A DNA stretch of 64,000 bases, taken from an archaeon. GTDB lineage: Archaea; Nanobdellota; Nanobdellia; Pacearchaeales; GW2011-AR1. Below, piece by piece: positions 56,031 to 56,106 of the stretch. The position numbers and the translations under genes are program-made. Below the pieces are notes generated by a model. The model was not told the DNA's origin and did no database searches. It was given only the letters and a program-made list of their open reading frames with translations. Position 1 is the first letter of the stretch, and every line of letters begins with the position of its first letter. The stretch lies in contig JABHWZ010000003.1 in NCBI GenBank assembly GCA_018657525.1, positions 14,840 to 78,839 of the forward strand. The letters run 5' to 3'.

Positions 56031-56106
56031 ACGCACTCGCCGAGATCCTGTCCTCAGGTTCTCGTGCCCCTCCGAAGGGTATCGAACTTCTCTGTTCGAA
56101 TTTCAA
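56031..56106 (-). repeat. 60-nt insert plus a displaced copy of the tRNA-Glu 3' end
   Basis: acgcactcgccgaga (56031-56045) versus acgccctcgccgaga (56106-56120). The insert carries a TCGAAC/GTTCGA hairpin and GATACCCTTCGGAGGGGCACGAGAACCTGAGGACAGGAT. Confidence 0.85.

Follow-up and report, generated by a model that had tools for sequence, protein, structure and literature searches.

A short motif, GATA-hairpin-CACRAGA, recurs in a 64,000-nucleotide stretch of an archaeal genome of the Pacearchaeales (contig JABHWZ010000003.1 of assembly GCA_018657525.1; the whole stretch analysed is called the window, and positions refer to it), and some copies directly abut a displaced copy of a tRNA end. This raises the question of whether the motif is a recombinase-binding or cleavage site belonging to a larger element, as an earlier note proposed, or something else. 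We find that the recurrence is real, and the evidence points instead to the motif itself being the inserted DNA, a hairpin-forming unit of 18 to 36 bases. It sits in spare copies of tRNA ends, between genes, inside another repeat and in frame inside essential protein genes, and nothing like it was found in the literature searched. Its mobility, and the translation of its copies in genes, are inferred from sequence only.

Results

Recurrence of the motif in the window

The window is a low-GC (about 32%) stretch of chromosome whose genes are archaeal housekeeping genes: RadA-like, Nre, RFC subunits, FEN1/XPG, TFS, RNase P p30, and Trm5 and NSUN methyltransferases. It carries tRNA-Lys and tRNA-Gln, as well as an intron-containing tRNA-Glu(CTC) that was missed by the default tRNA scan and by Rfam at gathering threshold, and was recovered by ARAGORN with introns allowed (Table 1).

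The recurrence that the earlier note described is confirmed. The sequence at 56045-56083 (minus strand) reads GATACCCTTCGGAGGGGCACGAGAACCTGAGGACAGGAT, as the note stated, and the pattern GATA-N9-18-CACRAGA gives 7 matches in the window against 0.28 expected by chance (largest shuffle 2). Six of these (12418+, 26675+, 42672-, 50886+, 56083- and 56486-) are sites that the note listed, whereas the seventh (8576+) has no hairpin and looks like chance. CACGAGA alone gives 7 matches against 2.0 expected, but is not strictly invariant as the note claimed, because the 56486 copy has CACAAGA, as the note itself had written out. The first stem covaries as claimed, and both ACCT/AGGT (12418) and CCCT/AGGG also recur in other genomes.

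Two weaker copies that the note placed in the 77-nt NSUN units (GAAGGTTCACGAGCAGAGGGG) are not members, as they have no GATA and no hairpin. They are the duplicated coding 3' end of the NSUN catalytic domain (..EGSRAEGFFISKF). At 26777-26966 this 77-nt unit, which contains the coding 3' end (..EGFFISKFKKIK stop), is repeated 2.5 times in tandem, and the gene appears split into catalytic and PUA ORFs.

Rfam searches of the whole window at gathering thresholds, and two local searches at E up to 10, matched only the tRNAs; a weak CRISPR-DR35 hit (E = 0.73) was rejected. Single-sequence folding gave z-scores from +0.7 to -2.6, which are not exceptional and do not decide between readings.

Table 1. 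Features of the motif family and its surroundings in the window
Coordinates	Strand	Feature	Length (nt)	Sequence and context
56047-56081	-	Full module H+R	35	TACCCTTCGGAGGGGCACGAGAACCTGAGGACAGG; between hairpin A and the displaced tRNA-Glu end; the copy on which the earlier note centred
56082-56104	-	Hairpin A of the tRNA-linked long form		GAAATTCGAAC-AGAGAA-GTTCGA
56032-56046	-	Displaced copy of the tRNA-Glu 3' end		ATCTCGGCGAGTGCG; one mismatch to 56107-56121
56106-56297	-	tRNA-Glu(CTC) gene		117-nt intron in the anticodon loop (after position 39 as ARAGORN numbers it); its 3' end (56107-56121) is the first copy of the repeat
56453-56484	-	Full module H+R	32	TACCTAAGATGGCACAAGAACCTGAGGACAGG; downstream of tRNA-Gln
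56485-56504	-	Hairpin A of the tRNA-Gln long form		TGATTCGAACCAAGGTTCGA
56436-56452	-	Displaced copy of the tRNA-Gln 3' end plus TT		ATCCTGGAGGGGCTATT; identical to 56505-56521 inside and after tRNA-Gln (56506-56580)
12420-12451	+	Full module H+R	32	Precisely between X (12396-12419) and Y (12452-12459) of a 32-nt duplicate of the tRNA-Lys 3' end and trailer; intact X+Y at 12598-12629; antisense to the tRNA
50888-50905	+	Half module H alone	18	TACCCTAAAGGGCACGAG; 14 nt downstream of the RFC small-subunit stop codon, antisense to that gene
42653-42670	-	Half module H	18	Inside the type B element within the TRM5 ORF
42613-42722	-	Type B element	about 110	Richer in G+C than its surroundings; in frame inside TRM5/TYW2 (ORF 42052-42987, plus strand); accounts for most of a roughly 43-residue insertion relative to solved Trm5 structures
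26677-26694	+	Half module H		TACTCCGAAGGGCACGAG, with a U-G pair in the stem; inside the second type B copy
26625-26734	+	Type B element		Between the NSUN/RsmB catalytic ORF (26928-28031, minus strand) and its PUA-domain ORF (26068-26691, minus strand); 84% identical to the TRM5 copy
22208-22292	+	Type B-like element without H		Aligned to the B copies, lacks exactly 18 nt at the H position

Anatomy and insertion sites in the window

The core unit, H, consists of 5'-TA, a 3-4 bp stem, a 3-5 nt loop, the other arm of the stem and CAC(G/A)AG-3' (17-19 nt in total). It occurs alone or, in the common form H+R, with AA and a second hairpin R (CC-Y-N, loop, N-R-GG), giving 31-36 nt. Only the unpaired tags (TA, CACGAGAA) and the outer stem pairs are conserved, while the inner stem pairs and the loops vary with compensating changes.

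Abutment on a displaced tRNA end, as the note described, is confirmed for Gln, Glu and Lys. Downstream of tRNA-Gln and tRNA-Glu, on the tRNA strand, the order is the tRNA 3' end, TT, a small hairpin A (ATTCGAAC-N4-6-GTTCGA), the module TA..GG, and then the same tRNA end again from T-loop position 59 (ATCC...). This arrangement, which we call the long form, starts exactly at the T-loop GA^A, and without the module the junction reads GGTTCGA^ATCC, a normal T-loop. At tRNA-Lys the duplicate of the tRNA end and trailer lies about 200 nt from the gene (202 nt from the contiguous X+Y) and is split by the module exactly between X (24 nt) and Y (8 nt). A third partial copy of the tRNA-Gln end (GAGGGGCTATT) lies at 56335-56345, about 90 nt beyond the second, with a T-loop-like TCTTCGAACC in the DNA between them; the tRNA-Gln/Glu spacer is a stack of end duplicates.

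Two H units lie inside the type B repeat, and a type B-like element lacks exactly the 18 nt TA-stem-loop-CACGAG. H is therefore an insertion within type B. The type B repeat (5' hairpin, UUCCUCGAA, a second hairpin, tail ..GAUaCCGCA) was seen at 26625-26734 (+), 42613-42722 (-) and 22208-22341 (+), and at L045, L055 and L074 (L numbers denote loci from the collection scans described below). In four cases (L045 rpS3Ae-like, L074, L055 and the window PUA ORF) its reverse complement ends directly 5' of a start codon, with a GGGGGU/GGGUG run 7-10 nt upstream, and it may supply a ribosome-binding site. Additionally, the first 21 nt or more of the CDC48-like gene (ATGAAAAAyGGATTrATGTTA) are duplicated about 286 nt upstream, at the stop codon of the preceding gene (22174-22480), with type B-like and other small repeats (family D7 of our repeat analysis) in between. 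This is another insertion that keeps the host gene intact by duplicating its end.

Copies in other genomes

A first scan of species genomes with a 17-base pattern was too loose: most of its 119 hits were chance matches in high-GC bacteria, and only nine low-GC archaeal loci (L021, L035, L045, L048, L055, L074, L099, L100 and L107) were real. These nine are annotated as Woesearchaeota, Pacearchaeota, Nanoarchaeota or unclassified archaeon, so the host of the window is a DPANN-type archaeon. A tighter scan of metagenome contigs gave 78 loci, of which about 60 are low-GC contigs carrying real copies.

The second hairpin is conserved in structure rather than in sequence. Among 61 distinct copies from other contigs, 49 have a hairpin of at least 4 bp starting at the fixed CC, against 9% of shuffled tails, and its fourth pair is G-C in 28 copies, C-G in 19 and T-A in 2. 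This part of the sequence was not constrained by the search pattern. As a MAFFT alignment put the 3' arm of this hairpin out of register, pairs were counted with a custom script and no covariance model was built.

Ten further tRNA genes of several identities show the long form. Each is flanked by direct repeats of 11-34 nt, mostly 16-18 nt, of the tRNA's own 3' end, which always match that genome's tRNA, and one locus (L191) carries two tandem units. The DNA between the repeats is 52-58 nt, or about 170-230 nt, and no integrase was found in the window. Two other tRNA contexts were read differently. At L107/L129 (about 5215-5335, minus strand) a tRNA-Thr(GGU)-like gene has the module in reverse orientation between the variable region and the T-arm; we first read this as an intron, but the two acceptor strands do not pair (two mismatches) and no matching arm was found nearby, so it may be a chimeric or pseudo-tRNA. 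At L176, what looked like a module inside a functional tRNA-Arg is in a diverged upstream duplicate, with the intact gene downstream.

H occurs alone about 15 times. It is found nested in the loop of another module's second hairpin (L179) and directly after full modules (L189/L021, L131), and L168 and window 50888 also belong among the nested and solo cases. A further small hairpin, T-GAC(T/A)C-loop-G(A/T)GCC, with its own compensated pair and a conserved A-C mismatch, often follows the module (L130, L141, L144, L168, L182, L190 and others, and window 12460-12490), for example TGACTCAACTTCGTTGAGCC. In proteins the run reads ..SPRDDSSK-DTQGGHENLQAG-DTAVPSGEP.., which suggests a set of small modules that stack together. 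The family is modular.

Copies in protein-coding genes

About 30 copies sit inside long ORFs, and many carry the identical sequence in unrelated, often essential genes: family B DNA polymerase (PolB), PolD large subunit, RtcB, PheRS-beta, another aminoacyl-tRNA synthetase, GyrA, TatD and a staphylococcal-type nuclease (SNase). At least 12 unrelated host proteins are involved. Alignment of the RtcB on L165 to the P. horikoshii protein (1uc2) shows one clean gap of exactly 11 residues, TPKGHENLQAG, equal to 33 nt inserted within ..CTT GA^T GGT... The TatD and nuclease alignments also place the insert where solved homologues show alignment gaps.

Length depends on context. Thirty copies are 33 nt and 2 are 36 nt, including all the copies embedded in ORFs, whereas the tRNA-linked and other non-coding copies run 31, 32, 33, 34 and 35 nt. 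We take this as the main argument that coding copies are read through by the ribosome, as 11-12 extra residues (typically DTQGGHENLQAG), rather than spliced out.

Twenty of 31 ORF copies are in the sense frame that reads GAT-ACC (D-T...), giving DTQGGHENLQAG, which looked like a peptide signal. However, in the window's own genes 61% of sense-strand GA-W sites are in that phase and 64% of all GA-W sites are on the sense strand, and the excess is therefore marginal (p about 0.035 each). Other frames also occur, namely DTHRGTRT in L161 and IPKEGTRTSNE in PolD. The PolD copy is shared by four contigs and its second hairpin is decaying, and so it is an old inherited insertion. The primary constraint is on the DNA, not the peptide, and the frame pattern fits a DNA-level target rule.

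The left flank is GA in nearly all copies and the right flank is T or A. Both scans required GATA, however, and copies found incidentally in the same loci have GA, AA, CA, TT, TC or GG on their left; we therefore state the target only as after A, mostly GA^W. No target duplication was seen at the ORF, tRNA-Lys or type B sites.

Discussion

We conclude, with moderate confidence, that the motif represents a family of ultra-small, non-autonomous mobile DNA insertions in DPANN archaea. The earlier note's interpretation is partly supported. It was right that this is a structured sequence family with compensatory stem changes, that it is linked to mobile DNA, and that three window copies sit exactly at the junction with a duplicated tRNA end. 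However, removing the module restores the host sequence exactly at the tRNA-Lys duplicate, the Gln and Glu T-loops and RtcB, and most copies elsewhere lie in protein-coding genes with no duplicated host ends. The module may still be what a transposase recognizes, but no recombinase was identified.

Our analysis shows precise insertion, without target duplication at the sites named above, conservation at the level of structure, the spread of identical copies into unrelated sites, and old copies that decay. Translation of coding copies is inferred from the length pattern alone, and mobility from sequence. Movement in trans by an enzyme that recognizes a folded single strand is inferred from the anatomy; most likely this would be an HUH/Y1-type transposase of the IS200/IS605-RAYT kind, which cuts next to hairpins and pastes 3' of a short target without duplicating it. 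Several results weigh against this inference. Pfam scans of about 50 window ORFs, many of which have no Pfam match at all, found no Y1_Tnp, other transposase or integrase, and no H...R pair enclosing genes was found in 83 low-GC stretches of DNA (about 515 kb), nor any match in a scan of a viral collection. Additionally, the six window copies are split three on each strand although GC skew is positive across nearly the whole window, which does not show the strand bias typical of single-strand transposons, though the sample is small and two of these copies ride on type B. The long form may be insertion at the T-loop GA^A of a unit that brings a replacement tRNA end, a 17-bp target duplication, or a module inserted into an older attachment-site scar; its conserved hairpin A and 16-18 nt repeats are equally well read as target duplications or attachment sites.

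Alternative readings appear less probable. The earlier note's view, in which the module is an arm or core site of a tRNA-integrating element used by a tyrosine or other site-specific recombinase, and the short stretches between the tRNA and its displaced end are remnants or trans-mobilized mini-elements, draws support from the direct repeats of the long form, from tRNA neighbourhoods with several displaced ends (window 56335-56521, L099 and L176), and from the other host-end duplications at the CDC48 5' end and the NSUN 3' end. We nevertheless consider it unlikely, as most copies lie in ORFs or between genes with no duplicated host sequence and no tRNA nearby, the Lys copy is inverted relative to the tRNA, the element between the repeats is only 52-58 nt, no integrase was found in the window, and the module behaves as a precise insertion into the displaced end rather than as a flank of it. 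A role for the conserved peptide (D-T-x-x-G-H-E-N-L-x-A-G) in protein function, with incidental hairpins, is the most remote possibility. Although 20 of 31 ORF copies encode near-identical peptides in one frame, the same nucleotide sequence occurs in tRNA ends, between genes and in other frames, the frame bias is close to that expected from GA-W targets, stem positions change in pairs, and the host proteins are unrelated, with insertions falling where solved homologues show gaps.

Action at the RNA level, as a mini-intron cut by the archaeal splicing endonuclease or as a protein-binding motif such as a kink-turn for L7Ae, is suggested by the tandem GA...GA around the first hairpin, the conservation of structure rather than sequence, the U-G pair in the 26677 copy, complementary GGUUC/GAACC and CCUC/GAGG flanks around GA..GA in the long form and type B, the mostly sense orientation of copies in genes, and the tRNA introns of the host lineage. 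This too is very unlikely. The multiple-of-three lengths of coding copies would be unnecessary if they were spliced, and antisense copies exist in TRM5, after RFC, at tRNA-Lys and in L124/L149. By our reading, worked through by hand, the exon flanks cannot form bulge-helix-bulge pairing (two 3-nt bulges around a 4-bp helix) at the RtcB, RelE or tRNA sites. The kink-turn geometry fails because the strand opposite the bulge has two extra bases (UA) and the flanking helix is absent in ORF copies. There is also no Rfam match, and folding energies are not exceptional.

Among described systems, REP elements, including intragenic ones, and the CGTC-tagged Rickettsia elements are the nearest repeats (PMC3733652, PMC10969869). 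Like REPs, the module is a short imperfect palindrome with a conserved unpaired tag at one end, a short tail at the other and variable stems and loops, and occurs as single units, pairs and clusters; some REPs lie inside genes, including replication and repair genes (PMC3733652). REPs are thought to be moved in trans as folded single strands by RAYT (IS200/IS605-type Y1) transposases, whose genes are often flanked by REPs. However, in our tag comparison all copies carried CACGAG (CTCGTG on the other strand), with TA, rather than the GTAG or CGTC of REPs, stems are only 3-5 bp, the 18-nt unit is below the REP size range (20-40 bp; PMC3733652), the host is archaeal, many copies are in frame inside genes, and no RAYT gene was found among the ORFs scanned in the 64-kb window. 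The second hairpin R and the tRNA-end long form are not known to have a REP counterpart. Rickettsia palindromic elements are likewise palindromic repeats inserted in frame into many unrelated, often essential genes, and also into RNA genes, and are read through as extra peptide segments (PMC10969869). They are bacterial and about 100-150 bp, against 18-36 nt here, and the type B element in TRM5 resembles them more closely in size.

IS200/IS605-derived miniature elements (PATEs), moved by single-strand 'peel and paste' transposition, lack target-site duplication, insert 3' of a short host sequence and carry a hairpin near each end, and the H+R form could be a fusion of a left end and a right end. 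The module is far smaller than any end pair so far described, the cleavage positions relative to the hairpins differ, and no tnpA or tnpB partner or full-length parent was found. It is not a classical MITE, as the ends TA.. and ..GG are not inverted repeats and no duplication flanks ORF copies. With tRNA-targeting integrative elements it shares duplication of the tRNA 3' end from the T-loop onward and tandem arrays of displaced ends, but the unit between the repeats is about 55 nt with no genes, and the same module occurs widely with no tRNA or repeat nearby.

Literature searches on the exact sequence, on palindromic and in-frame repeats in DPANN archaea, on Rickettsia palindromic elements in archaea and on repeats in Woesearchaeota and Pacearchaeota found no paper that contains the sequence or describes such an element in DPANN archaea. 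The motif works like a REP or Rickettsia palindromic element but differs in size, tag and archaeal host, and there is a fair chance that the mobilizing chemistry is new. A more speculative reading, which we regard as doubtful, is that this is the smallest transposable unit yet seen, an 18-nt single hairpin, or 33 nt with a second hairpin, moved by an enzyme and chemistry not yet described in archaea. In this view it would colonize essential genes by staying in frame, and at tRNA genes would insert into the T-loop while supplying or duplicating the tRNA's own 3' end so that the gene survives, a 'self-healing' insertion that builds repeat-insert-repeat arrays.

If confirmed, the family would add an archaeal counterpart to REP and Rickettsia palindromic elements at a much smaller size. 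It would show that DPANN archaea, despite their small genomes, tolerate repeated in-frame insertions in core enzymes such as RtcB, DNA polymerases B and D, gyrase and aminoacyl-tRNA synthetases. It would also offer a simple sequence marker for recent mobile-DNA activity and for lineage tracing in metagenomes, and would help annotation by explaining odd 11-12 residue inserts, split genes and false 'extra tRNA ends' in these genomes. Finding the enzyme that moves an 18-nt hairpin could reveal a new, compact DNA-insertion activity.

Other features of the window

TRM5 carries a second insertion relative to solved Trm5 structures, of 13 residues (GRSSAYPKLRNAK; 42430-42468, residues 127-139), which is unrelated to the module. 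Between two RFC-type genes (49172-50733) lie four small ORFs without Pfam matches, the first and last of which share a 65-nt stretch that is 92% identical at their 5' ends (repeat family D5). A run of six ORFs with no Pfam match lies at 35241-40692.
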